Source of the DNA: a virus
Lineage: Duplodnaviria > Heunggongvirae > Uroviricota > Caudoviricetes
IMG/VR virus record: IMGVR_UViG_2711768047_000011
DNA length: 37,931 bases
Strand: one strand, 5' to 3'
Below the pieces are notes generated by a model. The model worked only from the letters and a program-made list of their open reading frames with translations, had not been told where the DNA came from and did not search any database. The translations under genes and the position numbers were made by a program. This document shows positions 3,725 through 34,864 of this stretch, in pieces. Numbering within the stretch: position 1 is the first letter of the stretch; the number at the start of each line of letters is the position of its first letter.

Positions 3725-3951
3725 TGGCTGATGCAATGGATCTCGTACAGCAGCGCGTTGAAGAAGAACGCCAGCGTCATATCCATGCTGCCCGTGCCAA
3801 AACGCCGGGCGTGTCCCGCGTGCTTTGCATTGAGTGTGAAGCGCCAATTCCGCCAGCACGCCGCCGTGCCATTCCGGGTGTGCAGCTTTGCATTACCTGT
3901 CAGGAAATCGCAGAGCTGAAAGGCAAACATTACAACGGAGGTGATGTATGA
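3724..3951 (+). CDS. TraR/DksA-family C4 zinc-finger protein
   Basis: CIECEAPIP...CITCQ four-cysteine motif with basic linker, typical of phage TraR/DksA-like proteins. Confidence 0.65.
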   Translation: MADAMDLVQQRVEEERQRHIHAARAKTPGVSRVLCIECEAPIPPARRRAIPGVQLCITCQEIAELKGKHYNGGDV

Positions 3952-4805
3952 GCACCATCCTGAAATGGGCGGGAAATAAAACTGCCATAATGTCAGAACT
4001 GAAAAAACATCTTCCTGCTGGCCCGCGACTGGTTGAACCTTTCGCGGGTTCCTGTGCTGTGATGATGGAGACGGATTATCCCAGCTATCTGGTTGCGGAT
4101 ATTAATCCTGATTTAATCAACCTCTATAAAAAGGTTGCCGCTGATTGTGAATCATTTATATCTCGCGCCAGAGTTTTATTTAAGGAAGCAAACAGGGAGG
4201 TGGCTTATTACAACATAAGGCAGGAGTTTAATTACTCAACTGAAATTACTGATTTCATGAAAGCGGTATATTTCCTGTATCTCAATCGTCACGGTTACCG
4301 TGGTTTATGTCGCTATAACAAGAGCGGGCATTTCAACATTCCCTACGGTAATTATAAAAATCCGTATTTCCCTGAAAAAGAAATTCGCGCATTTGCAGAA
4401 AAAGCCCAGCGGGCAACGTTTATCTGCGCCAGCTTTGATGAAACGCTGGCGATGTTGAAGGCGGGGGATGTGGTGTATTGCGATCCGCCGTATGACGGTA
4501 CGTTTTCCAGCTATCACACTGATGGTTTCACTGAAGATGACCAGTATCACCTGGCATCCGTTCTTGAACATCGGTCATCAGAAGGACATCCGGTCATTGT
4601 TTCTAACAGTGACACATCCCTGATCCGTTCGCTGTATCGCAATTTTACTCACCACTATATCAAGGTAAAACGCAGCATCGGTGTGGCAGCTGGCGAGGGT
4701 AAATCAGCAACAGAAATCATTGCTGTTTCCGGGCCGCGCTGCTGGGTGGGATTTGATTATTCGCGTGGCGTGGATAGTTCTGCCGTGTACGGAGTACGTG
4801 CATGA
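3948..4805 (+). CDS. dam: DNA adenine methyltransferase (Dam family, N6-A)
   Basis: N-terminal LKWAGNK SAM-binding motif and catalytic DPPY (CDPPYDG); GGAGGTGA RBS. Confidence 0.85.
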
Positions 4806-7216
4806 GCCATGCCGATATGAACAACTGCTGCGGCTTTAACGAGGCTGCCGCAGCGTTCTCATGGAACAGCCCGAAAAAGGCCATTAACCCTTATCTGGAC
4901 CCGGCGGAAGTTGCGCCGGTTTCTGCGCTTTCAAACCTGATCACTCTGTACGCTGCCGATAACGAGCAGGAACAGTTGCGCCGCGAGGCACTGAGTGATC
5001 AGGTCTGGGAGCGTTATTTTTTTAATGAATCACGTGATCCTGTCCAGCACGAAATGGAGCAGGATAAGCTCATTAGCCGGGCAAAGCTGGCGCATGAGCA
5101 GCAGCGTTTTAATCCGGATATGGTCATTCTGGCGGACGTCAACGCCCAGCCTTCCCATATCAGCAAGCCGCTGATGCAACGTATTGAATACTTCAGCAGC
5201 CTGGGCAGGCCAAAGGCTTATTCCCGCTATTTACGTGAGACGATTAAGCCATGTCTGGAACGACTGGAGCATGTACGCGACAGCCAGCTATCTGCATCTT
5301 TTCGTTTTATGGCAAGCCATGTAGGGCTGGACGGCCTGCTGATTCTGCCTGAAATGAGTCAGGATCAGGTGAAACGCCTGTCTACCCTTGTCGCTGCGCA
5401 TATGAGCATGTGCCTTGATGCAGCTTGTGGTGATTTGTATGCCACCGATGACGTTAAGCCAGAAGAAATCCGCAAGACATGGGAAAAGGTGGCAGCGGAA
5501 ACCCTGCGTCTGGATGTTATCCCGCCTGCGTTTGAGCAACTCCGTCGGAAAAGAAACCGCCGTAAACCCGTGCCCTATGAACTCATTCCGGGTTCGCTGG
5601 CGCGTATGTTGTGCGCCGACTGGTGGTACCGGAAATTATGGAAAATGCGTTGCGAATGGCGGGAAGAGCAGTTGCGTGCTGTCTGCCTGGTCAGCAAAAA
5701 AGCATCTCCCTATGTCAGCTATGAAGCCGTGATGCATAAACGTGAGCAGCGCCGCAAGTCACTGGAGTTTTTCCGTTCTCATGAACTGGTGAACGAAGAG
5801 GGCGACACGCTGGATATGGAAGACGTGGTAAACGCCAGCAGCAGCAACCCGGCGCACCGCCGCAATGAGATGATGGCCTGTGTTAAAGGTCTGGAGCTTA
5901 TCGCGGAAATGCGCGGTGACTGCGCCGTTTTCTACACCATTACCTGTCCGTCACGTTTCCATTCCACGCTCAATAACGGCAGACCAAACCCAACTTGGAC
6001 AAATGCGACGGTAAGACAAAGCAGCGATTATCTGGTCGGCATGTTTGCTGCATTTCGTAAGGCGATGCACAAAGCCGGATTACGCTGGTATGGCGTGCGG
6101 GTGGCTGAGCCGCATCATGACGGTACAGTTCACTGGCACCTGTTGTGTTTTATGCGCAAAAAAGACCGCCGCGCCATCACTGCATTGTTGCGTAAGTTTG
6201 CCATCCGTGAAGACCGCGAGGAACTGGGTAATAACACTGGTCCACGCTTTAAATCTGAGCTGATAAACCCGCGCAAAGGAACACCGACAAGCTACATCGC
6301 GAAATACATTAGTAAGAACATTGACGGGCGTGGTCTGGCTGGCGAGATCAGCAAGGAAACGGGTAAATCCCTGCGTGATAACGCTGAATACGTTAATGCC
6401 TGGGCGTCTCTGCATCGTGTTCAGCAATTCCGCTTCTTTGGCATTCCGGGGCGTCAGGCTTACCGTGAACTGCGATTGCTGGCTGGTCAGGCGGCAAGGC
6501 AACAGGGGGACAAAAAAGCAGGTGCGCCGGTACTGGATAACCCGCGCCTTGATGCCATCCTGGCTGCTGCTGATGCCGGTTGTTTTGCCTCCTACATCAT
6601 GAAGCAGGGCGGCGTACTGGTTCCCCGCAAATATCACCTCATCAGAACCGCTTATGAAATCAACGAAGAGCCGACCGCCTATGGCGATCACGGTATTCGT
6701 ATTTATGGCATCTGGTCACCCATTGCAGAGGGTAAGATCTGCACTCATGCAGTGAAGTGGAAAATGGTTCGTAAAGCCGTTGACGTTCAGGAGGCGGCAG
6801 CCGACCAGGGCGCTTGCGCCCCTTGGACTCGTGGCAATAACTGTCCCCTTGCTGAAAATTTGTACCAACAAGGGAAAGACAAATCAGCTGATGGGGATAC
6901 CAGAACGGATATCATCCGTATGGATGACAAGGAGTTGCACGATTATCTGCACAGTATGAACAAAAAAGAGCGCCGAGAACTGGCTGCAAGGTTACGCCTG
7001 GTGAAACCGAAACGGCGTAGAGACTACAAACAGCGAATTACAGACCATCAACGACAGCAGCTCGTCTATGAACTGAAGTCCAGAGGATTTGATGGCAGCG
7101 AGAAAGAGGTCGATTTACTCCTTCGCGGCGGCAGCATTCCGTCAGGAGCAGGCCTGCGAATCTTCTATCGGAACCAGCGTTTGCAGGAAGATGATAAGTG
7201 GCGGAACCTGTATTAA
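4802..7216 (+). CDS. rolling-circle replication initiation endonuclease (P2 gpA-like)
   Basis: 804 aa; HUH-type motif (TVHWHLLCF) and tandem-Tyr region ([12 protein letters not shown]); start overlaps dam stop. Confidence 0.85.
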
Positions 7217-7976: not shown

Positions 7977-9035
7977 TTAATTTTCAATTCCCTCCATTTT
8001 ACAATGAGTTTTTTCCCAGAACTGTAATACAACAGGACTAGCCCACTCTGGCATCAGTGCGTTATTTAAAAAACTGAAAACATCATGAGACGCATCAGCA
8101 TTTTTTCTAAGGAATTTCCAGCCTTTTCTAGTATTTATCTCAACAATACCTAACCCACCATCATCAAACATATGCATCTTGAATTCAGGATTGTTTACAC
8201 CTAGAGATTTTATTTCTTTTATGTATGGACTATCTTCATCCATAAATATTTTCTCTATGTGCTTAGCACAATGATATATTTTATTTCGATAAGTTGATAC
8301 GCTCACAGCGGTACGCGCTGTTGTTATTCCCATTCCTAATGGGGCATATGCTTTTCCATCCATCACTACGGGCAGATTTATTCCATTTTTTCTTAAGTTT
8401 GCAATATCTGAATCTGTAGTTGGATGAATACAAGCTAAGCCTGAAATACCTTTCATTTCAAATATTTCTGCTGCTTCTGGCCAGTTGCGTATGAATGTTT
8501 CTACCAAATCTCTTTGAGAAAAAAGATTTGGTTCTATGTTTTTATCATGATGTTTTATATCAATAAAAAGCACAGCGTTTGAGTACACCTTCAGGAATAA
8601 TACCCACTCAGCACGATCTGAGTATTTTTTACTTGAACTTACTGGATTTAATGGCAGATGGAGGTGATGAATCCCCCAATCAGCCCATAGGTTATCCGTT
8701 CTTTTCGTCGCCTTTTTACCGCTTGTGTCATTGAATAATGTTAATGTTTTACTCTGATAAGGATTTACATCACCACCAGTAGTAAACAACATCTCGATTC
8801 TCTGCAATCCAACCCTTGCGCCATCGTGAATATTTTCAGGAAATCGATCTGATTTTAAAATTATTCGTTTTTGTGGAGCAATGTAGCGTAAAAGAAAATC
8901 ACACCACCTCAGTAGAGGATCGTGAAGATTTGAGTGCCCGGATTCATCATATAATAACCCAAATGCTTGAATTCCCTTCTCTGAAATTTCGTCAATATCT
9001 TTGATTAGATCAATATTTTTTCGTGCGTCCAACAT
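7977..9035 (-). CDS. hypothetical protein (352 aa), hotspot cargo of unknown function
   Basis: AT-rich ORF on opposite strand to flanking phage genes; GGAG RBS before ATG; no family recognised by eye. Confidence 0.6.
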   Translation of the reverse strand: MLDARKNIDLIKDIDEISEKGIQAFGLLYDESGHSNLHDPLLRWCDFLLRYIAPQKRIILKSDRFPENIHDGARVGLQRIEMLFTTGGDVNPYQSKTLTLFNDTSGKKATKRTDNLWADWGIHHLHLPLNPVSSSKKYSDRAEWVLFLKVYSNAVLFIDIKHHDKNIEPNLFSQRDLVETFIRNWPEAAEIFEMKGISGLACIHPTTDSDIANLRKNGINLPVVMDGKAYAPLGMGITTARTAVSVSTYRNKIYHCAKHIEKIFMDEDSPYIKEIKSLGVNNPEFKMHMFDDGGLGIVEINTRKGWKFLRKNADASHDVFSFLNNALMPEWASPVVLQFWEKTHCKMEGIEN

Positions 9036-9301
9036 ACTAACTCCGTTTAAATATAATTTTTTAGTATTTCAGTTAATTAATATCTATACGCCGTTATAGC
9101 TGAATTTTCCGGTGATTTCAGGGCACATTAACCAATTTAGATAATACTATAGTAATGGTTGGGCTGATTTTTCAAGAACAAAAGTAATTTTCAAGCTTTG
9201 TAACATGTTGATTTTCCACTTTTCGCTCAAGCGGGCTTTCATCTTTGCAAGCCCATATGTTCGTTTTTCAAGCGATTATTCAGATACGTTAACTTCCCAT
9301 G

Positions 9302-9410
9302 GCAGTGCATGACTATGCTGCATGAAATCGCATGATCGATCGAGGATCGTCTATGCTTAGACCAGCCAGAAATGGCGGGCTTTTGCTCATGTCATGCAGC
9401 TGCATGAAAA
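9302..9410. repeat. cos-flanking repeat cluster
   Basis: Direct repeat GCTGCATGAAA at 9317..9327 and 9399..9409; inverted pair GCAGTGCATGAC (9302..9313) / GTCATGCAGCTGC (9391..9403). Confidence 0.4.
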
Positions 9411-9429
9411 CCACTGCATAAAGTGGGCA

Positions 9430-9448
9430 GGCGTGGCGGGGATACGAG
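9430..9448. other. cos cohesive-end site candidate (GGCGTGGCGGGGATACGAG)
   Basis: First 13 nt identical to the 19-nt cohesive end I recall for 186 (GGCGTGGCGGGGAAAGCAT; P2 GGCGAGGCGGGGAAAGCAC); lies where cos sits in P2-like genomes. Confidence 0.5.
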
Positions 9449-9568
9449 CGCGCGCTAGAAACGTTTACTGATATTCTTGTAGTACATTGCATTTTTCTTT
9501 TTTTATGTCATATCATTAGCCATTTGAATAGGACATTATTATCAATTTGTTGTCTCTGAGGATAAGTT

Positions 9569-11350
9569 ATGAATTTTGATGCAACACCACTAAATATAAA
9601 AAACATTCTATCTGTAAAACAAAGATATGTTATTCCTCGTAATCAACGTGAGTTTAGTTGGGAAAAGCTTCAGCTTGAAGAGTTATGGCAAGATATTGTC
9701 AGAAACATAAGGTTGAATGAAGATGGACAGAACTTGGAGTGTTCAGAATATTTTATAGGGACTATTGTTCTTTCTGGAGCAGATAGTGATGATGTATTAG
9801 AAGTGGTTGATGGACAACAACGATTTTCAGTTATTACTATATTGCTTTCATTAATATCGCGTAAATTGCGTTCCTTAGGGCAAGATTCATTAGCGGATGA
9901 TATATTTAAAACATATATCGTTACTGTGAGTCCTACATTTAGCAGAAGCCAATTAGCTTCAAATGGTGAGACATTTATTGAAAAATTAGCAAAAAATAGC
10001 GATAGAACATATTTTAAGTTAAAATATCAAGATCGCGAAGAGCATCAAGTTGATGAATCTTGTGAAGAGGATGTACGTATAAGTTATGCAGGAATTTTTC
10101 TTTCTAGAAAACTAGGGAGGAAATCACTCTGTTCTGCATTGTTGCGAGATGGTGCAAAACATTATAATAACCAAGATTATATATTTTGTTTGACTGCTGT
10201 ATATAGAATGATTACCAATTATTTGAAGTTGGTAAAAATATCTGTAGGTAAGGAGGATGATGCTTATGATATTTTTGAAGTGTTGAATGCTCGAGGGATA
10301 AACTTAAGTTCAATTGATTTGATAAAGAATAAAGTATTCCAAACTTGCACTCAAACATATCCGGTAGATATTGCAAAAACAAAATGGGATTATATCGTTA
10401 CTCAAATTGAGTCTAGGGATAGTAATAGCACTATTGCTGATTATATTAGAACGTGGTGGCTTTCTAAGTATAATTATATTGGAGAAGATCAACTTTATCG
10501 TGCTTTTAAACGTGAGATTCAAGATGAGAATACTTTATTGTCATCAGCATCATTTCTGAACGAATTATATGATGATGTTGAATTATACTGTAAAATAATA
10601 GCGCCAAATACAGATGACTGGCCTCAACCTGATCAGCGTGAAATTTACAACTCGTTAAAAGCATTCGAGATTTTTAATGTGAGTATTCCTCGACCATTTG
10701 TACTCTCATTACTTAGAAAACGTAAAGAGAAACCGAGAGCCCTTACACAATCAATGCTGATAGAATGTTTGAAGTCCTTAGAGTCATTTCACTTTAAGTT
10801 TAATGCAGTATGTCGTCTAAGACCATCTGGAATCGATGCAAAATATTCTGTATTAGCAGTAAGAATGAATAAGGCATTAAATAAAAGAGATGTTGAGGGT
10901 GTTATTAATGACGCGTTAGATTATTTTACACAGAAAGGGCCTTCAGAAAATATATTCAAACAAGCATTTTCAAAGAATATTGTTTATACAAATAAAAAAT
11001 CTGGGCAAAGGAAGTTGATTGTTTATATTTTTGACAAATTGGAACGTATCAGACGAGGGACGCGAGAGTTAAAAATGGATATAGTTTCTTTGGAGCACAT
11101 ATCATCTCAAAGCAAAACTAACGAGTCAGTCGTGGGTATGATTGGTAATTTACTACCACTCTGTTTTTCACTTAATGAAGATTGCAAAAATTATGAGTTG
11201 CACAAAAAAATAGAATCTTATAAAAAATCTGATTTAAAATTAGTTACAGAGTTTGTTAGTGAGTCAGAAGCAAGAGAACATAAATGGGATGATTCATTAA
11301 TAAAAGAAAGAACAGATAGCTTGGCGTTAGAAACGTTTGCTAAAATATAA
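9569..11350 (+). CDS. DUF262/DUF1524 fusion protein (GmrSD-family type IV restriction-like nuclease)
   Basis: N-terminal ParB-like DUF262 motifs (IPRNQREFSW, DGQQR at 9809..9823, FEVLNARGINLSSIDLIKN); C-terminal His-Me finger-like DUF1524 region (LEHISSQS...IGNLLPL...N). AT-rich, GAGGA RBS. Confidence 0.75.
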   Translation: MNFDATPLNIKNILSVKQRYVIPRNQREFSWEKLQLEELWQDIVRNIRLNEDGQNLECSEYFIGTIVLSGADSDDVLEVVDGQQRFSVITILLSLISRKLRSLGQDSLADDIFKTYIVTVSPTFSRSQLASNGETFIEKLAKNSDRTYFKLKYQDREEHQVDESCEEDVRISYAGIFLSRKLGRKSLCSALLRDGAKHYNNQDYIFCLTAVYRMITNYLKLVKISVGKEDDAYDIFEVLNARGINLSSIDLIKNKVFQTCTQTYPVDIAKTKWDYIVTQIESRDSNSTIADYIRTWWLSKYNYIGEDQLYRAFKREIQDENTLLSSASFLNELYDDVELYCKIIAPNTDDWPQPDQREIYNSLKAFEIFNVSIPRPFVLSLLRKRKEKPRALTQSMLIECLKSLESFHFKFNAVCRLRPSGIDAKYSVLAVRMNKALNKRDVEGVINDALDYFTQKGPSENIFKQAFSKNIVYTNKKSGQRKLIVYIFDKLERIRRGTRELKMDIVSLEHISSQSKTNESVVGMIGNLLPLCFSLNEDCKNYELHKKIESYKKSDLKLVTEFVSESEAREHKWDDSLIKERTDSLALETFAKI

Positions 11351-11357
11351 GTTCAGT

Positions 11358-11376
11358 GGCAGGTATAGTACCTGCC
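11358..11376. terminator. bidirectional hairpin between convergent genes
   Basis: Perfect 8-bp stem GGCAGGTA/TACCTGCC with 3-nt loop, followed by an A/T-rich stretch. Confidence 0.5.
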
Positions 11377-11386
11377 ATTATTCAAT

Positions 11387-12421
11387 TTACATACACTCCA
11401 CAGAGTATTCACTGAATGAGATGATGTTTTTTTTAGCCCATTCATTAAGTTGCAGAATATGTTTTTGAATTGGTAGTAACTCATTCATAACAAATACTTT
11501 CGCGGCCTTTTCCACATCCCCAAACCCCCCAACATTATTAGGCATAATCCCCATCATTTGCGGTGGCACACGATGCGCCGCCATCATGTCATCCCGGCTC
11601 ACGTTCTTGATGTTTAGAAACTCATCCTTCGCCGCCACTTCTGACAACGGGATAATCTGAAGTCCGTCCTTTTTCCCGTTAGGCGAGTACATAAACAGGT
11701 TGCGGAAGTTACCTGGTCCTTTGGCGCTTTTCATCGCATTGCGGAGGTTGTTCACGTCCTCCTGGTTCTGCGCGGCATCGGTCATGTACATGATGAAGCC
11801 TGCATGGCTGCCGTTGATGTAATACTTACGGCGGAACAGCGTGGCGGACTCGTTGAGCAGGGCTGACGGAATGGCAGAAAGATAACCGGGCAGGCCGTAG
11901 ATCTCCTGGTTGATGTCCGGTTCCATCAGATGAAAAATGCTGCCTTTCGTGAACTGATACGGCTGCGTAGTCATGCCGTATTGCACAAACCAGTAGGTAT
12001 CCAGGTCTAATCCGCGTCGGGTGTATTTTGCCAGAGCAGGCTCAAGGGCGATAACTTCACCGAACCGGTTTGTGCGTTTCTCCAGGTAGGCGTTACCAAA
12101 TACCAGATAGTCCTGCACAAAACGCGAAAAAGCCTGCTGGCTGAGCAGCGGATGAGGGATATAGGTACTGGTCAGAATGTTGCACTTTACTGCAATCGGG
12201 GAACTGTGATGCACGGCAGCGCGGAAGGTGCGCGCCAGTCCGTCAAAGCTGACGGGCGGCTCATACCAACGGTCCATCTGTACGCATTCCACATAGTCCA
12301 GCAGTTCTCGGCGGTCCAGAACAGGAACGGGATCGCCGAAGCTGAATGCTTCGGCTGTAGTCTGGCTTTTAAGCTGGATCTGTTTCGTCGCCGCAGCGCG
12401 GTTTTTCTTACTCTTTCCCAT
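11387..12421 (-). CDS. portal protein (P2 gpQ-like)
   Basis: 344 aa from ATG 12419..12421 (same size as P2 gpQ); start overlaps terminase stop (ATGA). Confidence 0.9.
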   Translation of the reverse strand: MGKSKKNRAAATKQIQLKSQTTAEAFSFGDPVPVLDRRELLDYVECVQMDRWYEPPVSFDGLARTFRAAVHHSSPIAVKCNILTSTYIPHPLLSQQAFSRFVQDYLVFGNAYLEKRTNRFGEVIALEPALAKYTRRGLDLDTYWFVQYGMTTQPYQFTKGSIFHLMEPDINQEIYGLPGYLSAIPSALLNESATLFRRKYYINGSHAGFIMYMTDAAQNQEDVNNLRNAMKSAKGPGNFRNLFMYSPNGKKDGLQIIPLSEVAAKDEFLNIKNVSRDDMMAAHRVPPQMMGIMPNNVGGFGDVEKAAKVFVMNELLPIQKHILQLNEWAKKNIISFSEYSVECM

Positions 12422-14187
12422 CAAAAAATCTCCACAATATTGCTGGTATTGGCGGATTCGCCCTGCAGTGGTTCGTTAAACAGTGCGTGCATTGTTGCCC
12501 AGGCCAGATCGGCGTGGCTGGCTTCTTCGCTGCGGCTGGCTTCATAGGTTGGGCGGTTGCCACTGGCGGTGGTTGCGCGACGGATTGCCATGAATGACTG
12601 CGCAATGTCGGTGTGCCCGGCGTCAAACTCCAGACGGCGGTGGCTGATAATGTCGTAGGCCTTGAGTACCAGGGCGTTTTTAACGTTGGGGTTGTAGACA
12701 AACTCCCGGACGGCAGGAAAGAACGCTTTCACGTTCTCGTAAACCCCGTGACCAACGCCGGTTGAGTCGATACCGATATAAGTCACGTTGTACTGTTCGG
12801 TAAGTTTTTTGATGGCGTCAGCCTGGGCGCGGAAGTCCATCCCGCGCCACTGGTGACGCTCAAGAATGCGGAACTTACCACCCGGCACGGCTGGCGGTGC
12901 CACCACCACGCATCCAGCGCTGTCGCCGTTTTGCGTACCTTTTGCCGGGTCATAACCGATCCACACTTCGCGCCAGCCAAACGGGCGCAGCGCCAGTGCA
13001 TGAAAGTCGGTCCAGACTTCCCAACTGTCCACCATGCACGCCTGCAGCTCGCTGAGCGGGAACACGGACGCGAGATCGTCCACGAACTCGCACATCAGCA
13101 GGTTCTGGTATTCGTCCGGGCTGTACTCCATGCGTAGCTGGTCGAGGTCGAACAGGTTACAGCCGCCGCGCACCGCATCTTCCACGGTGACTATCTGGCG
13201 GTATTGCCCGTCTGCGCACAGCAGGCCGGGGGCCAGATTGCTGTGGGACAGGTCGATATCCACCTTGTCAGCTTTGTTGCGCCCACGGTTGAACAGCGCA
13301 CCGGACCAGAACGGATAAGCACTGTGGGTCAGGCTGGATGGTGTGGAAAAATAGGTCTGCCGCCATTTCTTGTGAATAGCCATACCGGAAGCCACTTTGC
13401 GCAGCTCCTGAAATTTCGGTATCCAGAAATATTCATCCAGATACAGGTTGCCGTGGTAACTCTGGGCCGTGCGGGCATTGGTGCCGAGGAAGTAAAGCGT
13501 GGCCCCGTTGGGAAGCACCATCGGATCGCCTTTCAGCTCCACCTCCACTTCTTTGGCGAAGTCGATGATGTACTGCTTAAAGACGTGAGCCTGTGCCTTA
13601 CTGGCAGAAAGGAAAATCTGGTTACGTCCGGTAAGCAGGGCGTCAATCAGGGCTTCACGGGCAAAGTAAAAGGTCGCGCCGATCTGGCGTGACTTCAGCA
13701 GGTTGCGGATGCGGTTGGTTTTTCCGGCTTCCCACCAGTGGCGCTGGTAGTTGAACATGGAGGAATGGAAGATTTCTTCCAGCTTCTCAATCTGTTCATC
13801 GGTGAAGACATTCTTTTCCGGCTGACGGCGCGGGCCTTTGTTGCGGTTGGCGACGTTAGGATTTAAGTCGGCTTCGTTGCCGCCATTGTTAAACTTGCCG
13901 ATCCGCGCGTGGCGCTCCGACTGGCGCGCCAGCAGGTCAATCTCTTTGAAATCTTTCCCTTCTTTGTGCTCCTTCATAATTAGCTGGCAGTAGCGTGCGG
14001 CGGTGGTGAGCTGCATCTGATCCAGCGGCCCATAGTCACCCCACTTGTCGCGTTTTTTCCAGCTGTGAACGGTTGCAACTTTCTCGCCCAGCATTTCAGC
14101 AATGCGGGCTACGCGGTATCCCTGAAAGTACAGCAGCATGGCCTGCCGACGGGGATCGAGATCTGCGGGTGTCAGTGTGGTGTTCAT
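12421..14187 (-). CDS. terminase large (ATPase) subunit (P2 gpP-like)
   Basis: 588 aa; position and size as P2 gpP; divergent from O. Confidence 0.9.
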   Translation of the reverse strand: MNTTLTPADLDPRRQAMLLYFQGYRVARIAEMLGEKVATVHSWKKRDKWGDYGPLDQMQLTTAARYCQLIMKEHKEGKDFKEIDLLARQSERHARIGKFNNGGNEADLNPNVANRNKGPRRQPEKNVFTDEQIEKLEEIFHSSMFNYQRHWWEAGKTNRIRNLLKSRQIGATFYFAREALIDALLTGRNQIFLSASKAQAHVFKQYIIDFAKEVEVELKGDPMVLPNGATLYFLGTNARTAQSYHGNLYLDEYFWIPKFQELRKVASGMAIHKKWRQTYFSTPSSLTHSAYPFWSGALFNRGRNKADKVDIDLSHSNLAPGLLCADGQYRQIVTVEDAVRGGCNLFDLDQLRMEYSPDEYQNLLMCEFVDDLASVFPLSELQACMVDSWEVWTDFHALALRPFGWREVWIGYDPAKGTQNGDSAGCVVVAPPAVPGGKFRILERHQWRGMDFRAQADAIKKLTEQYNVTYIGIDSTGVGHGVYENVKAFFPAVREFVYNPNVKNALVLKAYDIISHRRLEFDAGHTDIAQSFMAIRRATTASGNRPTYEASRSEEASHADLAWATMHALFNEPLQGESANTSNIVEIF

Positions 14188-19304: not shown

Positions 19305-19698
19305 AGCGGTGCCTTATGTCCGCAATAACCCGGACAAACTACATCTGTTTGTGGATAACGGTTCGCTGGTTGCCACGGGGGCCAGCTCCATGTCATGGGA
19401 GTACCGTTACACCCTGAACGTGGTGATTGAGGATTTCAGCGGCGACCATAATCTGCTGATGGCCCCGGTTTTGCTGTGGCTGCGGGATAACCAGCCTGAT
19501 GCCATCAATAATCCGGCGTTACGGGAAAAACTATTCACCTTTGAAGTGGATATTCTGCGCAACGATGTCTGTGATATCAGCCTTAATCTGCAACTGACGG
19601 AGTGTGTGCTGGTCAGCACTAACGGCAGTGTGTCGAGTGTTGAAGCTGTAGCGGAACCCGATGAACCTGAAGAAATGTGGACGGTTAAACGTGGCTGA
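19267..19698 (+). CDS. tail completion protein R (P2 gpR-like)
   Basis: VNKPQSLRHAL...FVDNGS...RYTLNV...WLRDNQPD parallels the P2 gpR N-terminus; GTG 19267 after AGGAG RBS. Confidence 0.8.
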   Translation: MNKPQSLRHALNKAVPYVRNNPDKLHLFVDNGSLVATGASSMSWEYRYTLNVVIEDFSGDHNLLMAPVLLWLRDNQPDAINNPALREKLFTFEVDILRNDVCDISLNLQLTECVLVSTNGSVSSVEAVAEPDEPEEMWTVKRG

Positions 19699-20140
19699 AC
19701 TGCAGAAAGTGGACGACTGGCTGAGTGCCTTGCTGGCGAATCTGGAACCAGCCGCAAGAAGCCGAATGATGCGCCAGCTGGCGCAGGAACTGCGCCGGAC
19801 ACAGCAGCAGAATATCAGGATGCAGCGCAATCCTGATGGCAGCAGTTATGAACCGCGCAGGGTAACAGCACGCAGTAAAAAAGGCCGTATCAAACGGCAG
19901 ATGTTTGCAAAGCTGCGCACCACAAAATACCTGAAAACTTCCGCCAGCGCCGACTCTGCCAGCGTGCAGTTTGAAGGCAAGGTACAGCGCATTGCCCGTG
20001 TTCACCATTACGGCCTGCGCGATCGCGTTAGCCGTAACGGCCCAGAAGTGCGCTATGCGGTGAGGAAGTTGTTGGGTATCAACGAAGAAGTGGAAACTTT
20101 AACTCAAGACATATTATTAATGTGGATATCCAGGAAGTAA
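19661..20140 (+). CDS. tail completion / virion morphogenesis protein S (P2 gpS-like)
   Basis: 159-aa ORF after R; exact start uncertain. Confidence 0.7.
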   Translation: MNLKKCGRLNVAELQKVDDWLSALLANLEPAARSRMMRQLAQELRRTQQQNIRMQRNPDGSSYEPRRVTARSKKGRIKRQMFAKLRTTKYLKTSASADSASVQFEGKVQRIARVHHYGLRDRVSRNGPEVRYAVRKLLGINEEVETLTQDILLMWISRK

Positions 20141-20252: not shown

Positions 20253-21053
20253 ATGTCTGAAAAGTTAATTTTTTTATCCCATATAACAGAAGAAAAAGAA
20301 TTAGCGAAAATAATCAAAGATGCAATTGAAGACGAGTTTTCTGGATTCGTTGAAGTGTTTGTATCGTCAGATGGGAATACAATTAAAGCCGGTCAAAATT
20401 TCTTAAATGTTATTGAAAATGGGTTAGTAAATTGTATTGCTGCTATTTATCTGATAAGCCCAGAATCTGTCCAGAGAAGCTGGATTAGTTTTGAGTTAGG
20501 GGCTGTATGGGTTAGAAATGCTATCAGCCGGCAAAACGGCGGGCCAGAAATCCCTGCTATTCCTTTTTGCCACTCGGATATGACGTTTAGAGACTTGCCC
20601 CAACCTATCTGTAATCTAAATGGTATTGAAGCAAACCGATCTCATTCCTTGGAGTTTGCATTTAAGTCGATTCAGACCGCTGTTGGAGGAAAAGGACGAT
20701 TGAGAACTGATTTTGATGTTCTTGCCGAGAAAGTTAACATTTTTGAGAGAGATTATACAGTCTTCAAAAGTATAGGCGAAATTCTCGGTTTAATTGGTGT
20801 AGATAGCCAGCGTCGCGCACAATTAGTTCAGCTTGTTAATAGTTCAGCAGAGAATGAAGTTATAATTAAAACTGATACTAGGCAGGATTCAGCAGATATA
20901 ATATTTAAATTAGTTGATACTAAGTTAAGTCATTTCGCTAAATATAAAGTAACATCTTCTGGTTTAGGTATGGGACTTCAAGGCGCTTCCCCTTTCTGTG
21001 AATTTGAATTGAGAATGGATCGGAAAATACTCAGTGATTACTTGGCTCGATAG
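20253..21053 (+). CDS. TIR-like domain protein (266 aa), cargo between S and V
   Basis: N-terminal IFLSH...ELAKIIKDAIE...VEVFVSSDG.I.AGQNF...I...I..IYLISPESVQRSWISFELG follows the TIR beta-alpha pattern; very AT-rich; strong RBS TAGGAGGG. Confidence 0.6.
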   Translation: MSEKLIFLSHITEEKELAKIIKDAIEDEFSGFVEVFVSSDGNTIKAGQNFLNVIENGLVNCIAAIYLISPESVQRSWISFELGAVWVRNAISRQNGGPEIPAIPFCHSDMTFRDLPQPICNLNGIEANRSHSLEFAFKSIQTAVGGKGRLRTDFDVLAEKVNIFERDYTVFKSIGEILGLIGVDSQRRAQLVQLVNSSAENEVIIKTDTRQDSADIIFKLVDTKLSHFAKYKVTSSGLGMGLQGASPFCEFELRMDRKILSDYLAR

Positions 21054-21129: not shown

Positions 21130-21708
21130 ATGAACGCACAATTAACCGAAATCATGCGCCTTATCACCAACCTGATCCGCACTGGGGTAGTCACCGAAGT
21201 GGACAGGGAAAACTGGCTTTGCCGGGTGAAAACGGGCGAGCTTGAAACCAACTGGATCAGCTGGCTGACGCTGCGTGCCGGGAATGCCCGGACATGGTGG
21301 CGACCATCGGAAGGTGAGCAGGTGGTGCTGCTGAGTCTGGGCGGCAATCTGGAAACCGCCTTTGCGTTACCGGCCATCTATTCGAATCAGTTCGCGCCAC
21401 CGTCGACGTCGGCGGACGCCTGCGTGACAGAACATCCTGACGGTGGCTGGTTTGAATACGAACCCGCCACCGGGCGCTGGTTTGTCAGGGGCATCAAATC
21501 AATGGTCATTGAGACCGCTGACAACATCACCATGAAAACCAGTGAGTTTGTGCTGGAGGCTGACCGCACGCGTATTAACAGCGAAGTGGTGATCAATGGT
21601 GGCGTTACCCAGAGCGGCGGTGCGATGAGTTCTAACGGGATCGTGGTTGATGCGCATCAGCATACTGGCGTCCTGAAAGGCGGCGATACAACCGGAGGCC
21701 CGGTATGA
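21130..21708 (+). CDS. baseplate spike protein (P2 gpV-like)
   Basis: MNAQLTEIMRLITNLIRTG... parallels the P2 gpV N-terminus. Confidence 0.85.
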   Translation: MNAQLTEIMRLITNLIRTGVVTEVDRENWLCRVKTGELETNWISWLTLRAGNARTWWRPSEGEQVVLLSLGGNLETAFALPAIYSNQFAPPSTSADACVTEHPDGGWFEYEPATGRWFVRGIKSMVIETADNITMKTSEFVLEADRTRINSEVVINGGVTQSGGAMSSNGIVVDAHQHTGVLKGGDTTGGPV

Positions 21709-23557: not shown

Positions 23558-25059
23558 GCACAAAATTTTATACCCTGCTGACGGATATTGGCGCGGCGAA
23601 ACTTGCCAGCGCCGCCGCGCTCGGTGTGCCTTTAAAAATTACCCATATGGCGGTCGGCGATGGCGGCGGAACATTGCCAACGCCGGACGCAAAGCAGACA
23701 GCATTGGTAAATGAGAAACGCCGGGCTGCGCTGAATATGCTCTATATCGACCCGCAGAACAGCAGCCAGATTATTGCTGAACAGGTGATCCCTGAAAACG
23801 AGGGCGGTTGGTGGATACGTGAAGTGGGCTTGTTTGATGAGTCCGGGGCATTGATTGCCGTGGGTAACTGCCCGGAAAGCTATAAGCCGCAACTGGCTGA
23901 AGGCAGTGGGCGTACCCAGACCGTGCGCATGGTGCTGATTACCAGCAGTACGGACAATATCATCCTGAAAATCGACCCTGCTGTAGTGCTGGCAACACGC
24001 AAGTATGTGGATGACAAGGCACTGGAGCTGAAGGTGTACGTGGATGACCTGATAGCAAAACATCTTGCCGCACTGGACCCGCATTCACAGTATGCACCCA
24101 AAGAAAGTCCGACATTTACCGGAACCCCCAAAGCGCCAACGCCAGCGGCGGGGAATAATACCACTCAGCTTGCGACCACCGCATTTGTTCAGGCGGCACT
24201 GACGGCCCTGATTAATGGTGCGCCAGCCACGCTGGACACGCTGAAAGAAATAGCCGCAGCCATTAACAATGATCCGAAATTCAGTACCACCATTAACAAT
24301 GCACTGGCACAAAAAGCGCCGCTGTCGAGTCCGGCACTCACCGGAACGCCAACAGCACCTACTGCGGCGCAGTCGGTCAACAATACACAGATTGCCACTA
24401 CAGCTTTTGTGAAATCAGCGATTGCAGCAATGGTGGGTTCTGCACCTGCGGCACTGGATACACTGAACGAACTGGCGGCGGCACTGGGGAATGATCCGAA
24501 CTTTGCCACGACAATGCTTAATGCGCTGGCAGGTAAACAACCGCTGGACAATACGCTGACTCATTTGAGTGGAAAGGATGTAGCAGGTCTTCTCGCATAC
24601 CTTGGTTTGGGAGAAGGTGCTCCAGCTATTGGCGTTCCGTTCTTCTGGCCCTCCGCTGCAATGCCAAATTCTGTCATCGACAGCTGGTCCGGTATGGTGT
24701 TTTTGAAGTTCAACGGCGCGAAATTCTCTGCCACTGATTATCCTGTGCTGGCGAAAGTGTTTCCTTCGCTGGTATTACCTGAAGCCCGCGGTGATTTCAT
24801 TCGTATCTGGGATGACGGGCGAGGTGCAGACGGTGGTCGCGAATTATTAAGCTGGCAGGCAGCTACAAACTTTTCTCAGTTTGCCGGGAATATAGGCGAA
24901 GGTGCGGGACACGCAATTAACTTTCATGATGGCATCGCCGGAAATCAGCCAGGATTTTCACGATTTAATTTCACCAGTAACTCTGTGGGTGATGGTGTGA
25001 ATTTTGTTGCTGTCAGACCGCGAAATATTGCATTTAACTTTCTGGTGAGGGCTAAATAA
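23554..25059 (+). CDS. tail fibre protein (P2 gpH-like)
   Basis: 501 aa; internal tandem repeat (about 60 aa x2: ...TQLATTAFV...DTLKEIAAA...NDPKF... / ...TQIATTAFV...DTLNELAAA...NDPNF...). Confidence 0.85.
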   Translation: MSTKFYTLLTDIGAAKLASAAALGVPLKITHMAVGDGGGTLPTPDAKQTALVNEKRRAALNMLYIDPQNSSQIIAEQVIPENEGGWWIREVGLFDESGALIAVGNCPESYKPQLAEGSGRTQTVRMVLITSSTDNIILKIDPAVVLATRKYVDDKALELKVYVDDLIAKHLAALDPHSQYAPKESPTFTGTPKAPTPAAGNNTTQLATTAFVQAALTALINGAPATLDTLKEIAAAINNDPKFSTTINNALAQKAPLSSPALTGTPTAPTAAQSVNNTQIATTAFVKSAIAAMVGSAPAALDTLNELAAALGNDPNFATTMLNALAGKQPLDNTLTHLSGKDVAGLLAYLGLGEGAPAIGVPFFWPSAAMPNSVIDSWSGMVFLKFNGAKFSATDYPVLAKVFPSLVLPEARGDFIRIWDDGRGADGGRELLSWQAATNFSQFAGNIGEGAGHAINFHDGIAGNQPGFSRFNFTSNSVGDGVNFVAVRPRNIAFNFLVRAK

Positions 25060-25652
25060 TGAAACCTGTTTTTGATGAAAATGGGCTGGCTACAGTGCCG
25101 GGCGATATGCGTTGTTTTTATTATGATGCTGAAACATCTGAGTATACGGGCTGGTCTGATGAATATATTAATACTGGCGTAAGTATGCCCGCCTGTTCCA
25201 CTGGTATTGACCCTGGCGAAAACATTCCGGGAAAAGTGGCAGTATTTACGGGTAAGGGATGGAGCCATGAAGAAGACCATCGCAATGAGACCGTTTACTC
25301 AACTGAAAATGGCGCAGCTGTTACAGTGGATTATATCGGTGCCATCAAAGACGGTTATGTCACGCTTTCACCGTTAACGCCATACGATAAATGGGATGGT
25401 GAGAAATGGGTGACGGATACCGAGGCACAGCATAGCGCCGCAGTAGAAGCGGCAGAAGCACAGCGCCAGTCGCTGATTGATGCTGCAATGGCTTCCATCA
25501 GTCTGATTCAACTGAAATTACAGGCCGGACGGAAGTTGACGCAGGCAGAAACAACCCGACTTAACGCCGTGCTGGATTACATTGACGCGGTGGCGGCAAC
25601 AGATACCAGCACCGCGCCGGATGTCATCTGGCCTGAACTGCCGGAGGCGTAG
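25059..25652 (+). CDS. tail fibre assembly protein (P2 gpG-like)
   Basis: 197 aa; C-terminus ...LDYIDAV...DTSTAPDVIWPELP typical of fibre assembly chaperones. Confidence 0.8.
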   Translation: MKPVFDENGLATVPGDMRCFYYDAETSEYTGWSDEYINTGVSMPACSTGIDPGENIPGKVAVFTGKGWSHEEDHRNETVYSTENGAAVTVDYIGAIKDGYVTLSPLTPYDKWDGEKWVTDTEAQHSAAVEAAEAQRQSLIDAAMASISLIQLKLQAGRKLTQAETTRLNAVLDYIDAVAATDTSTAPDVIWPELPEA

Positions 25653-25925: not shown

Positions 25926-26798
25926 TTAACTAGCGTGTAATAAGTTGAACAGGTTTTTAGTTACTTCGTTTTTAGTACTAAAAAACATATCTTTAAGGTC
26001 AGGTAATGCAAAGAGAGCATTTGGGGTATTCGGTACAACAATAGGAGGTTCATATCCGTTGTCATACATTTTCTTTAAAGCGGCTACTATTTTTTTCTGA
26101 TTTCGATTGAATTCATTCATGTCAATAAAAATTTCTCCAGATAGTGTCCCGTCATCTTCACGTAGTATCGCTGGTTTGACACGACATATCTGATCCATTT
26201 CTCCAGTAGAAAAACCGGCAATCGCTGCATTAAATAACAAAGATGAAGTAGCCCATTTTTCATATAGTTTTTTGATAGCCATGCTTCTGATTTTTTTATC
26301 GTTGATATATCCAATGCCACTGGCCAAAACTTCGGTTAATGGATTTTCCCCGCGAGTTACTCCAGACCAATAGTTGTGCATCCAGGGCGCATTTTGCTCA
26401 AGTGGAGAGCCGAGATAATCAGTGATCCACTCTGAATCCACCTCTGTAAAGTTCAAACCATGAAAATCAATTTCTGCAATAGTATTTTTATAGTTTTGAT
26501 TTAAACTCCAACGGTCGATTGCTATTTCAGCCATTTCTTTTGTTTTGAATAGGTATATTCCGGTTAGGCGGGAAACCTTATCTCTGAAATTGTCTGAGCG
26601 AACCTTTTCAAGAGCTAACTCATTTTGTAATTTTTCATTGTGATTATCTGATAAGTATTTCCTTACTAGATTGTAGAACCAAATAGATACTCCAAACTCA
26701 CTTTTATAGCAAATTGATTCAATTCTTCCTATTGCAACCTCCCAGGCAACAATTGGATTATTTAAATTTAAGTAAGCATATAGTTTTCTCTGTTCCAT
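25926..26798 (-). CDS. hypothetical protein (290 aa), AT-rich cargo in the tail-fibre switch locus
   Basis: ATG at 26796..26798 with AAGGA RBS (MEQRKLYAYL...); very AT-rich; no family recognised. Confidence 0.55.
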   Translation of the reverse strand: MEQRKLYAYLNLNNPIVAWEVAIGRIESICYKSEFGVSIWFYNLVRKYLSDNHNEKLQNELALEKVRSDNFRDKVSRLTGIYLFKTKEMAEIAIDRWSLNQNYKNTIAEIDFHGLNFTEVDSEWITDYLGSPLEQNAPWMHNYWSGVTRGENPLTEVLASGIGYINDKKIRSMAIKKLYEKWATSSLLFNAAIAGFSTGEMDQICRVKPAILREDDGTLSGEIFIDMNEFNRNQKKIVAALKKMYDNGYEPPIVVPNTPNALFALPDLKDMFFSTKNEVTKNLFNLLHAS

Positions 26799-26935
26799 TT
26801 TTATTTTCCTTATAGATGCTATGAAGGTTATTATTACATAAATGTTCGATAAATATTTTAAAGTTTTAACTATGTTTCGGTGGCAATAAATATACATTAC
26901 AAGTGAAATTTATCAAGATAACAAAAGGATAGCTA

Positions 26936-27340
26936 ATGCTAATAGGCTATGTACTCGTGTCAACAAATGACCAGAACACCGAGCTGTAACTCTTTATGCT
27001 GACAGAAGAGTTGCGCCAGCATGGTGTGAATTTTAGAAGCCTGACTGACAGTATTGATACCAGTACCCCAATGGGCCGTTTCTTTTTTCATGTCACGGGT
27101 GCCCTGGCTGAAATGGAACGCGAACTGATAGTTGAACGTACCAGGGCGGGGCTTGCTGCAGCTCGCGCCAAAGGCAGAGTAGGTGGACGCCGTCCTAAGT
27201 TGACCACCGAACAGTGGGCACAGATTGGGCGTTTACTCGAGGCCGGAGAATCAAGACAGCGTATTGCACTGATTTTTGATGTGGGTGTTTCCACAATTTA
27301 TAGAAAATTTCCGCCAAATAAGAGCAATGAATCCCCCTGA
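26936..27340 (+). pseudogene. Gin/Hin/Pin-family serine DNA invertase, internally deleted
   Basis: N-terminus MLIGYVLVSTNDQNTEL then in-frame stop at 26987, resuming as LTEELRQHGVNFRSLTDSIDTSTPMGRFFFHV...GGRRPKLT (C-terminal HTH). About 58 codons of the catalytic domain absent and the conserved Arg in YVRVST is Leu. Confidence 0.7.
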
Positions 27341-34652: not shown

Positions 34653-34864
34653 CGTTAAAAAACAGTGCTTCTAACATCATGATTTTAAAAGGCATAAATT
34701 TCAGGCAACAAAAAACCCACCAACCTTGAACCGAAATGGCGGGGTTGATGGGCTCCACAAAATGGGGACATCAAAGAAAAGCAGTGGCACTAATTAAGAC
34801 TGATGCCCTGCGGAAAAGTTCTGCGGTTGTGCAAAAAAATTTCATTTTCAGGGCAACTTCAGTT

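Follow-up and report, generated by a model that had tools for sequence, protein, structure and literature searches.

A solitary GmrSD-superfamily nuclease gene between cos and the portal gene of a 186/P2-like prophage, probably an anti-phage defence cassette

The gene at positions 9569..11350 (+ strand) of the window, which is the whole 37,931-nt stretch of DNA that was analysed (IMG/VR record IMGVR_UViG_2711768047_000011), codes for a 593-residue nuclease of the GmrSD superfamily and has cos on one side and the portal gene on the other, in a 186/P2-like prophage of E. coli. Both the protein family and the site are already described, the latter as a defence hotspot. The gene is real and probably functions in defence, and we consider it very likely that its product works as a GmrSD-superfamily defence nuclease. 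The explanation that we prefer as a whole, and hold to be reasonably probable, is that of a solitary type IV-like cassette that would attack the modified DNA of superinfecting phages.

The open reading frame runs from an ATG through a stop codon (593 codons translated) and is annotated in RefSeq as WP_001008289.1. As the first-pass annotation had reported, it is a 593-residue frame with DUF262 motifs: its boundaries were exact, and the two quoted strings were found in the translation, VIPRNQREFSWE at residues 21-32 of WP_001008289 and VVDGQQRF at residues 79-86. The description of the gene as AT-rich cargo was also accurate, as its G+C content is 32.3%, whereas the portal gene next to it has 50.9% and the window as a whole 49.9% (AT-rich cargo, 0.32-0.39; flanks, about 0.55). 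Comparison with a 69% identical homologue gave a pN of 0.21 and a pS of 0.78, the latter saturated, and the gene is under purifying selection; every allele keeps a full-length reading frame. A 1.8-kb frame in DNA of 32% G+C, combined with strong profile matches and a pN far below pS, makes a chance open reading frame far from plausible. In the RefSeq annotation of strain G4/9 the prophage is truncated and the nuclease gene is still present.

A profile search found both of the domains that had been read from the motifs, with matches above the curated Pfam cut-offs. The DUF262 (GmrSD_N, ParB-like NTPase) domain occupies residues 10-257 (9596..10339, + strand) and matched PF03235 over the full profile (2.1e-32), and the DUF1524 (GmrSD_C) His-Me finger domain occupies residues 458-586 (10940..11326, + strand; PF07510, 1.1e-11). 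Between them lies an all-helical linker or middle domain (residues 258-457; 10340..10939, + strand), modelled by AlphaFold2 mostly at pLDDT >80; in the model its helices span residues 268-470 approximately, and the order is colinear with that of HEC-06 and DndI. The motifs listed for the superfamily (QR, DGQQR and FxxxN in DUF262; H...N...H/N in DUF1524; Machnicka et al. 2015) are represented in the first domain by Q26-R27, D81-G-Q-Q-R85 (nt 9809-9823) and F236-x-x-x-N240, and an alignment of 35 homologues with 37-83% identity to the nuclease showed Q26-R27, D81-R85, F236 and N240 to be invariant, as were E509, H510, N527, N536 and K547. The His-Me finger (nt 11084-11185) is visible in the AlphaFold2 model, whose pLDDT is 86.6, as a beta-beta-alpha finger in which E509-H510 ends strand 506-510, N527 falls just before strand 528-532 and N536 lies inside helix 533-539. 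Foldseek searches with the model matched only GmrSD-like structures, and the NCBIfam profiles gave no informative match for the protein. With the DUF262 motifs, the DUF1524 finger and the helical linker all present, the protein is a member of the GmrSD superfamily, and the earlier proposal of a GmrSD-type architecture with intact catalytic motifs was borne out. Position 25, the sensor site in DndI (Y25) and SspE (Y30), is occupied by Asn in the nuclease (IPRNQREF), and among the 35 aligned members this residue is Asn in 17, Phe in 10 and Tyr in 8. Since the Asn that the nuclease and its subclade have in the PR(N/F/Y)QR motif is replaced by Phe in HEC-06, and by Tyr or Phe in other subclades, these proteins may sense their substrates differently.

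The best profile match was to the PADLOC model PDLC04154 (7.4e-75, residues 3-587), one of the HEC-06 models PDLC04154-04157, and PDLC04157 gave 2.7e-73. The DndI-family 'Orf5' model PDLC02687 also matched the nuclease (5.8e-66), and on account of such strong cross-matches the HEC-06 and DndI/'Orf5' model sets overlap and form one clade. HEC-06 itself, whose anti-phage activity is known for WP_096851903.1, aligned colinearly with residues 9-427 of the nuclease at 24% identity (E 1e-27); bit scores were 101 to HEC-06 versus 60 to DndI, and 119 on DndI's own model. The nuclease belongs to a separate subfamily whose members are at least 37% identical to one another and 24-28% identical to HEC-06. 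The latter has been described as acting alone, with DGQQR and E-H essential, and as blocking T4 (Payne et al. 2024 preprint, 10.1101/2024.01.29.577857), and its 22% identical homologue HEC-06_Bact protects against T2, T4 and T6 but not against unmodified T4-GT7. The general claim that the gene encodes a defence nuclease was therefore strengthened, since the best-matching profile is that of a validated, T4-blocking single-gene defence with a distant homologue that protects against T-even phages. HEC-06 shares with the nuclease the single-gene DUF262-linker-DUF1524 organisation, a similar length and the DGQQR and E-H residues; it was found inside Hma systems, whereas the nuclease is carried by a P2-like prophage.

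The closest solved structure is DndI from Salmonella Cerro 87 (PDB 9JFL; Foldseek E 4e-17, TM 0.69-0.72 over about 590 residues), which was also the best sequence match in the PDB (9e-12) with 17-20% identity. DndI combines a DGQQR NTPase with an HNH-type nickase and cuts unmodified DNA, and Tyr25 senses the host phosphorothioate (PT) and so shields self. It has the same length, architecture and overall fold as the nuclease and falls in the same PADLOC clade, but it is encoded with dndBCDE/dndFGH and has the PT-sensing Tyr25, whereas the nuclease has no linked dnd genes and has Asn25. A literature search found no paper naming both DndI and HEC-06.

Other members of the superfamily are more distant. 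The single-chain, solitary GmrSD/BrxU enzymes (Eco94GmrSD, EcoCT596 GmrSD and BrxU, PDB 7P9K) share with the nuclease the Pfam domains and the QR, DGQQR, FxxxN and H...N...N motifs, and by analogy the expected common function would be restriction of hypermodified phage DNA. However, phmmer gave no match between the nuclease and BrxU at E<=1, BLAST gave only local matches of about 25 bits, Foldseek gave E 5e-6 with a TM of 0.32, and the PADLOC mREase_IV model matched only a 50-residue stretch (2e-14); the RLFDS nucleotide-binding motif of BrxU and its embedding in BREX are also absent. SspE (PDB 6JIV/7DRS), a PT-sensing nicking nuclease of about 770 residues that is coupled to sspABCD, resembles the nuclease mostly at the N-terminus, where its DUF262 domain aligned at 8e-6 (Foldseek E 2.5e-15; full-chain TM 0.43). 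Both BrxU and SspE are thus further from the nuclease than are HEC-06 and DndI.

The distance from the nuclease gene to cos is 121 bp, and that to the portal gene 36 bp. The cos core, a 19-nt cohesive-end sequence (GGCGTGGCGGGGATACGAG; 9430..9448, + strand) found by regular-expression match and cos alignment, aligns with the cos of P4, Klebsiella P4-like elements, P2 and 186, the P4 and P4-like cores being those given in Table S2 of Rousset et al., and the site that had been a candidate in the first-pass annotation is therefore genuine. Likeness to other P2-like and P4-like cos regions extends to about position 9455, some 26 bp into cos, and is followed by an allele-specific upstream region (9456..9568, + strand) whose sequence is unrelated between alleles. 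It contains a GAGGA ribosome-binding site (9558-9562) and a weak sigma-70-like candidate (TTGCAT at 9487-9492, an 18-nt spacer and TATCAT at 9511-9516), which has 8 of 12 matches and is sub-threshold; the promoter scan of the + strand 5' of the gene gave nothing at or above threshold. On the other side, a terminator scan found a hairpin with an 11-bp stem (11355..11379) where the nuclease and portal genes converge, in the place of tQ of P2 and tW of 186, and the right border is formed by the portal gene, a gpQ homologue (11387..12424, - strand; PF04860 and RefSeq annotation). When the alleles were compared by alignment no common promoter or terminator was found, and the upstream regions and hairpins were non-homologous. 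An upstream region of its own, a single open reading frame and a terminator hairpin of its own make this, most probably, a self-contained defence cassette. In P2 (cosL 1-19, tQ 160-181, Q from 187) and in 186 (cos 1-19, tW 164-187, W from 196) there is no gene between cos and the portal gene. A 23-nt direct repeat flanking the nuclease was considered as an insertion site and rejected, as it is missing from empty sites and from other alleles. An Rfam scan of the window found no known RNA element near cos, the sole match being RybB in the host flank.

The cargo genes old and tin of P2 sit on the gpA side of cos, whereas the nuclease is found across cos, towards the portal gene; in P2, as in the window (gpA, 4802-7216), the cargo lies between gpA and gpQ beside cos. 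This cos-proximal gpA-gpQ region is the published P2 defence hotspot (the old/tin locus; Rousset et al. 2022; Vassallo et al. 2022), and as consulted here these two papers do not tell the two sides of cos apart. Being variable and AT-rich and lying beside cos, with gpA and gpQ to either side, the nuclease locus falls within the hotspot as defined. The earlier placement of the gene between cos and Q, in a slot that is empty in P2, was correct, but the novelty of this location had been overstated: supplementary Table S5 of the published hotspot work lists WP_001008289 as 'DUF262/DUF1524', and the cos-portal slot is occupied in 51 of the 61 P2-like prophages examined, which come from different species. 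All nine of the occupants that were sampled match PADLOC defence models, and this, together with the filled slots and the published listing of the accession, indicates a defence role for the slot. WP_001008289 is not among the hotspot systems described as assayed in the consulted text and table of Rousset et al., and a literature search on the accession found no paper.

Alleles of the nuclease occupy the cos-portal slot in 25 of 51 viral loci examined, at identities that range from 100% down to 35% and fall mainly at 100, 83, about 69 and about 37%. The gene itself was found in 73 of approximately 1270 E. coli genomes with the same prophage lineage, and at least 50 complete genomes, many of human source, have it at ≥99% identity. 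Homologues were found in P2-like and lambdoid prophages, on an IncFII plasmid and on the Aeromonas chromosome; they are solitary in each, and no dnd, ssp (both within 6-7 kb) or methyltransferase partners were found beside them in these four kinds of context. Similarly, the RefSeq annotation around the nuclease gene has no dnd or ssp genes and no BREX context, and in P0011 prophages the stretch from DinI to the portal gene holds no cargo gene other than the nuclease. The hosts examined were gammaproteobacteria throughout; the family is also found in Cyanobacteria and Bacteroidota. A search of 50,697 deposited phage genomes gave no close homologue; the matches were confined to Listeria phage records, with 23% identity.

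Two other genes of the prophage were considered as possible partners. The predicted Dam gene proved to be a D12-class N6-adenine methyltransferase (3948..4805, + strand; PF02086, 1e-76) that belongs to the phage backbone, outside the cassette. The special relation to the nuclease that had been proposed for it did not hold up: among 5426 E. coli genomes 1239 have Dam and 73 the nuclease, and the P2-like phage L111, with a 69% homologue in its cos-portal slot, has a PAPS-reductase gene (PAPS_reduct) rather than Dam upstream of gpA. As its E. coli hosts are Dam+ themselves, the nuclease could be carried only if it spared DNA methylated at GATC, and such sparing poses no puzzle. The other gene, a 352-residue PD-T4-7 homologue (7977..9035, - strand; PADLOC PDLC04066, 2.8e-144), is a second defence gene of the AT-rich island and lies on the gpA/DinI side of cos, opposite the nuclease. 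PD-T4-7 has been described as an abortive-infection, toxin-antitoxin-like defence that was found through selection on T4. The two genes occur together in 47 genomes, but a two-gene system was rejected, as PD-T4-7 is not beside the 69-83% alleles, which stand alone between DinI and the portal gene, and the genes are on opposite sides of cos.

From these features we infer expression in the lysogen, an anti-phage phenotype and, above all, a preference for modified DNA. The ParB-like DUF262 domain with its DGQQR motif would bind and hydrolyse NTP and serve as sensor and regulator, the helical linker would couple it to DUF1524, and the His-Me finger of the latter (E509-H510...N527...N536) would nick or cut DNA. 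In a lysogen the nuclease would most probably attack the DNA of superinfecting phages when its bases bear modifications foreign to the host, with T-even-type hypermodified cytosine as the prime candidate, and host and prophage DNA would be spared, having only Dam/Dcm-type methylation. This would amount to single-protein type IV-like restriction to the benefit of both host and prophage and, with PD-T4-7 across cos, may form a two-layer anti-T-even island. In keeping with the type IV criterion, the gene is solitary and has no cognate methyltransferase or modification genes, and on the indirect evidence that HEC-06 blocks T4 and HEC-06_Bact fails against T4-GT7 we lean slightly towards modification-dependent discrimination as the likeliest mode. 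Points against the preferred explanation are the 24% identity to the tested HEC-06, the opposite polarity of DndI, Asn25, the sub-threshold promoter and the lack of close homologues among the 50,697 deposited phage genomes.

That polarity could in principle apply here as well: the nuclease would nick any DNA by default, DUF262 would sense a mark found in all of its hosts, for instance Dam methylation of GATC, NTP hydrolysis stimulated by that mark would release the enzyme from self-DNA, DNA without the mark would be restricted, and the phage Dam could top up the mark. The full-length likeness to DndI in fold, the single clade suggested by the PADLOC cross-matches, the Dam gene in the window prophage and the restriction of the examined hosts to gammaproteobacteria, which are generally Dam+, are consistent with such a scheme. 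We nevertheless judge it improbable, as the nuclease scores nearer to HEC-06, dnd and ssp genes are unlinked in every context examined, Asn replaces the PT-sensing Tyr, Dam has no specific association and gives way to another gene in one nuclease-carrying relative, the family reaches Cyanobacteria and Bacteroidota, and a HEC-06 relative failed against unmodified T4-GT7, which is the contrary outcome. There is a similarly slim chance that the Asn25 subclade reads a DNA mark other than glc-hmC/hmC (GmrSD, BrxU) or phosphorothioate (SspE, DndI), with DndI-like polarity and Dam GATC as self signal at the extreme; were that extreme true, one protein would restrict unmethylated DNA without a dedicated methyltransferase. 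The nuclease might also stay inactive until a phage protein, or an intermediate of replication or recombination, rather than a base modification, triggers it to degrade phage and host DNA alike, given that many hotspot cargo genes, PD-T4-7 included, work by abortive infection, that its DUF262 NTPase has a regulatory role and that some GmrSD variants are toxic when overexpressed. This appears unlikely, as the characterised DUF262-DUF1524 enzymes (GmrSD, BrxU, TgvAB, SspE, DndI and HEC-06_Bact) all discriminate by DNA chemistry and no partner or antitoxin gene was present in the contexts examined.

Readings in which the gene has no defence function are less probable still. Proximity to cos, the ParB-like character of DUF262 and the partition systems carried by about a quarter of P2-like hotspots could point to a role in the phage life cycle, as a cos-associated nuclease, packaging accessory or ParB-like partition protein, but P2 and 186 package normally with the slot empty, unrelated genes matching defence models fill it elsewhere, most E. 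coli genomes with the prophage lineage lack the nuclease, and solitary homologues occur on plasmids, chromosomes and in lambdoid prophages; we regard such a role as very improbable. It would be just as surprising if the gene were a decaying or inactive remnant, for although its AT-rich DNA was acquired horizontally and shows no strong match to a promoter, and although the prophage of one carrier strain is truncated, all alleles have full-length reading frames, the catalytic residues are invariant, pN is far below pS and the gene is retained in that very strain (G4/9). In a milder version of the Asn25 reading, likewise given a slim chance, the series of diverged alleles in one slot (100/83/~69/~37%) would stem from diversifying selection that is exerted by inhibitors of the Ip1-3 type which phages inject.

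The analysis places HEC-06 and DndI in one clade of the GmrSD superfamily, and as the two are reported to have opposite self/non-self logic, domain architecture alone has no power to predict polarity. It also adds that the P2 hotspot is two-sided, with the cos-portal side filled in most P2-like prophages, that this slot swaps complete cassettes, with one edge some 26 bp into cos and the other at the stop codon of the portal gene, and that one nuclease family recurs there as strongly diverged alleles. If active, the nuclease would add to the resistance of E. coli lysogens against T-even-like or other modified-DNA phages, and would be relevant to phage therapy and to the prediction of host range.

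Translation of the window confirmed the ORF proposed in the first-pass annotation (9569..11350, plus strand), which starts at an ATG 6 nt beyond a ribosome-binding site (GAGGA) and encodes 593 residues that include both of the motif strings quoted there. The proposed DUF262/DUF1524 architecture was borne out by profile search, as both Pfam domains matched over their curated thresholds: GmrSD_N (PF03235) at residues 10-257 (2.1e-32) and GmrSD_C (PF07510) at residues 458-586 (1.1e-11). In RefSeq the protein is WP_001008289.1, with the product name 'DUF262 domain-containing protein'. A search of a collection of 5.8 billion proteins returned 890 relatives at E ≤ 1e-5; the 120 of these that were listed were mostly 570-600 residues long, nearly all with both Pfam domains, and came from Enterobacterales, Aeromonas, Vibrio, Shewanella, Cyanobacteria and Bacteroidota. 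When 35 members (37-83% identity) were aligned, Q26, R27, S30, W31, D81-G-Q-Q-R85, F236 and N240 were invariant in the N-terminal domain and E509, H510, N527, N536 and K547 in the C-terminal domain, and these correspond to the family-defining QR / DGQQR / FxxxN and H…N…H/N motifs. In an AlphaFold2 model (mean pLDDT 86.6), H510 ends a strand (506-510), N527 lies just ahead of a second strand (528-532) and N536 falls inside a helix (533-539), a predicted beta-beta-alpha His-Me finger.

Comparison with characterised systems refined this identity. The single-gene defence HEC-06 matched over the full length of the nuclease by PADLOC (7e-75), with 24% identity over residues 9-427 (E 1e-27); it has no solved structure. 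The Salmonella nuclease DndI, represented by the PADLOC 'Orf5' models, matched at 6e-66 (PDLC02687), by phmmer against PDB 9JFL at 9e-12, and by Foldseek against the PDB at E 4e-17 (TM 0.69-0.72). SspE gave a PADLOC match of about 1e-15, a phmmer match of 8e-6 and a Foldseek match of E 2.5e-15 with TM 0.43, while BrxU gave none by phmmer at E ≤ 1 and E 5e-6 with TM 0.32 by Foldseek. The generic type IV model mREase_IV matched only a stretch of about 50 residues (2e-14). In an all-against-all BLAST limited to the N-terminal ~440 residues, for which the tested HEC-06 was represented by the first ~400 residues given in the preprint supplement, the order of similarity was the protein's own subfamily (≥37% identity), HEC-06 (100-124 bits), DndI (60-73) and BrxU (~25), and the protein therefore belongs to the HEC-06/DndI clade of the GmrSD superfamily. 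The GmrSD-like architecture stood, but none of GmrSD, BrxU, SspE and DndI is its orthologue. The 'Orf5' models (PDLC02686-02702) were themselves shown to be the DndI family, since a DndI fragment scored 707 bits on PDLC02701; the same fragment matched HEC-06 models at 5e-48. The 'Orf5' and HEC-06 (PDLC04154-04157) models cross-match strongly for DndI and the window protein alike, so that automated naming of this clade as one or the other is close to arbitrary. No paper naming both was found in the literature searched.

The window is a 186/P2-like E. coli prophage, flanked in the annotated record by the host genes rcdA and ybjL; past the last prophage ORFs and before ybjL, the host flank carries the RybB sRNA gene (34707-34785, minus strand; Rfam RF00110, 104 bits). 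The nuclease gene has a G+C content of 32.3% (window 49.9%) and lies within an AT-rich island at about 8000-11500. The cos candidate of the first-pass annotation proved genuine: its core, GGCGTGGCGGGGATACGAG (9430-9448), matches those of P4 and of two P4-like elements from Klebsiella given in Table S2 of Rousset et al., and also agrees with the cos ends annotated in P2 and 186. Cos is 121 bp from the start of the nuclease gene, which ends 36 bp from the stop codon of the convergent portal gene (11387..12424; PF04860), with an 11-bp-stem hairpin (11355-11379) between the two genes. The slot had rightly been described as empty in P2, because the interval from cos to the portal gene holds a terminator only both there (cosL 1-19, tQ 160-181, Q from 187) and in 186 (cos 1-19, tW 164-187, W from 196).

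Alignment from cos to the ATG of nine alleles, all from this slot, showed that conservation ends about 26 bp inside cos (…TACGAGCGCGCGC), with no relation past that point even between the 100% and 83% alleles; each allele also has its own, non-homologous GC-rich hairpin ahead of the portal stop codon. Because upstream conservation stops near cos and the hairpins are allele-specific, the exchangeable cassette is the upstream region, ORF and terminator together (~9456-11386). A promoter scan upstream of the gene found none reaching the scan threshold, and a weak candidate was read by eye at 9487-9516 (TTGCAT, 18-nt spacer, TATCAT). The cassette is flanked by a 23-nt direct repeat (9452-9474 and 11324-11346; 19/23 identical), the left copy beginning at the point where the sequence ceases to resemble other cos regions and the right copy forming the final eight codons of the nuclease ORF. 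Its core, TAGAAACGTTT, occurs twice solely in loci with the identical allele and was not found in empty sites or other alleles; the repeat may be fortuitous or a trace left when the cassette was acquired.

The cos-proximal region between gpA and gpQ has been published as a defence hotspot (Rousset et al., 2022; Vassallo et al., 2022), and WP_001008289 is entered in its list as 'DUF262/DUF1524' (Rousset et al., 2022, Table S5). The nuclease is therefore already catalogued, being in that table and recognised by an existing PADLOC model, although the searchable part of the literature gave no account of its experimental test. Among 80 P2-like loci encoding portal-protein relatives in species-representative genomes (L017-L096), 61 had a cos core no more than 4 kb past the portal stop codon, and the gap between them was under 300 bp in 10, 300-1000 bp in 8 and 1 kb or more in 43 (above 300 bp in 51/61; median 1657 bp). 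Filled gaps were AT-rich with ORFs of varied size, none of them related to the nuclease or PD-T4-7, and all nine large ORFs sampled had PADLOC matches (IetS, Old-like, bSEFIR, PDC-S12, PDC-S49, PDC-S59, PDC-M01A, a pAgo-associated protein and a type II methyltransferase). The filled slot is thus not unusual, and with the hotspot published and the accession listed the location is already known; the sole refinement is that cargo is widespread on the portal side of cos in its own right.

A PD-T4-7 homologue (352 aa; 7977-9035, minus strand; PADLOC 2.8e-144) occupies the other side of cos, towards gpA and DinI. PD-T4-7 was found by selection on T4 and has been described as an abortive-infection, toxin-antitoxin-like defence (Vassallo et al., 2022). 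Since this homologue sits opposite the nuclease across cos, the island holds two candidate anti-T4 genes, possibly a layered defence. Five complete genomes match the 4.5 kb around the nuclease gene at 100% identity, and 47/5426 cover at least 80% of it. In E. coli G4/9 (L001; NZ_CP060073.1, 12888-14923), a prophage remnant that has lost most structural genes, with a truncated portal gene (N-terminus missing in the annotation) abutting gene D and ogr, retains the early region, PD-T4-7 and the nuclease gene at 100% identity. A third candidate defence gene, at a site separate from the two published P2 hotspots, is an AT-rich 266-aa TIR-domain ORF (20253-21053, plus strand; N-terminal PF13676, 1.5e-7; weak PADLOC matches to PDC-S66 and spbK) inserted between the tail genes gpS (19661-20140) and gpV (21130-21708). 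Another AT-rich segment (25926-27340), between the tail-fibre assembly (25059-25652) and sheath (27483-28655) genes at the Z/fun position of P2, carries a minus-strand 323-aa ORF that Pfam and PADLOC did not match and a 114-aa serine resolvase/invertase fragment (Resolvase C-terminal end and HTH_7).

A relation between the nuclease and the phage Dam had also been raised. This D12-class adenine methyltransferase (3948..4805) lies directly upstream of gpA in the early operon and is found in 1239/5426 E. coli genomes. The nuclease gene is in 73/5426 (50 at ≥99% identity and 23 at 60-80%), five of the places being on plasmids. In a P2-like viral contig with a 69% homologue in the slot (L111), Dam was not found within the 2 kb available upstream of gpA; its position just upstream of that gene (977-1987) is taken by a PAPS-reductase-domain protein (PF01507, 6e-35; SGGKDS PP-loop motif). 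These counts and this replacement argue against any specific association with Dam. This early-operon position may itself vary in which DNA-modification-type gene it holds. The E. coli host itself methylates GATC, so any resident nuclease must tolerate this methylation.

The domains do not by themselves imply the dependence on modification predicted in the first-pass annotation, because one architecture serves opposite self/non-self logic in the two nearest relatives. HEC-06 acts as a single gene, loses activity with Q79A/R80A (DGQQR) or E471A/H472A (Payne et al., 2024), and is reported to block T4. DndI instead nicks DNA whatever its modification and is toxic to PT-deficient cells; its Tyr25 senses host phosphorothioate, which stimulates the ATPase and releases the enzyme from self-DNA. 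A DndI-like polarity would suit the shared fold, yet the window protein is nearer HEC-06 in the N-terminal BLAST, and its homologues stood alone in all the contexts examined: as the one gene between DinI and portal in other P2-like prophages, on an IncFII plasmid, within the nin region of lambdoid prophages of Klebsiella and on an Aeromonas chromosome, with no dnd, ssp or methyltransferase neighbours in any of these. At the position of DndI Y25 and SspE Y30, HEC-06 has Phe and the window subclade Asn; across the 35 aligned members, 17 have N, 10 F and 8 Y. A gene that crosses genera on mobile elements must also spare naive hosts, which argues for recognition of something that hosts lack. On these grounds, type IV-like restriction of modified DNA is the reading we favour, by a modest degree, as plausible if unproven; a nuclease activated by some other trigger seems to us unlikely, and a DndI-like polarity very improbable.

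Relatives of the nuclease were encoded at 72 loci in a scan of IMG/VR. Across the 51 of these covered by the counts, 25 carried the nuclease homologue in this slot, where the portal gene follows after 43-206 bp; a cos core lies 90-145 bp upstream in 22 of the 25. Against a 69%-identical homologue from the same slot, pN was 0.21 and pS 0.78 (saturated), which shows that the gene is under purifying selection. The slot alleles share 100%, 83%, ~69% or 35-39% identity with the nuclease while the flanking portal proteins are mostly 72-99% identical, a disparity that points to cassettes being replaced repeatedly, or diverging rapidly, at a single site. Such allele divergence would be consistent with reports of diverse GmrSD variants and of the specific inhibitors that phages inject against them.
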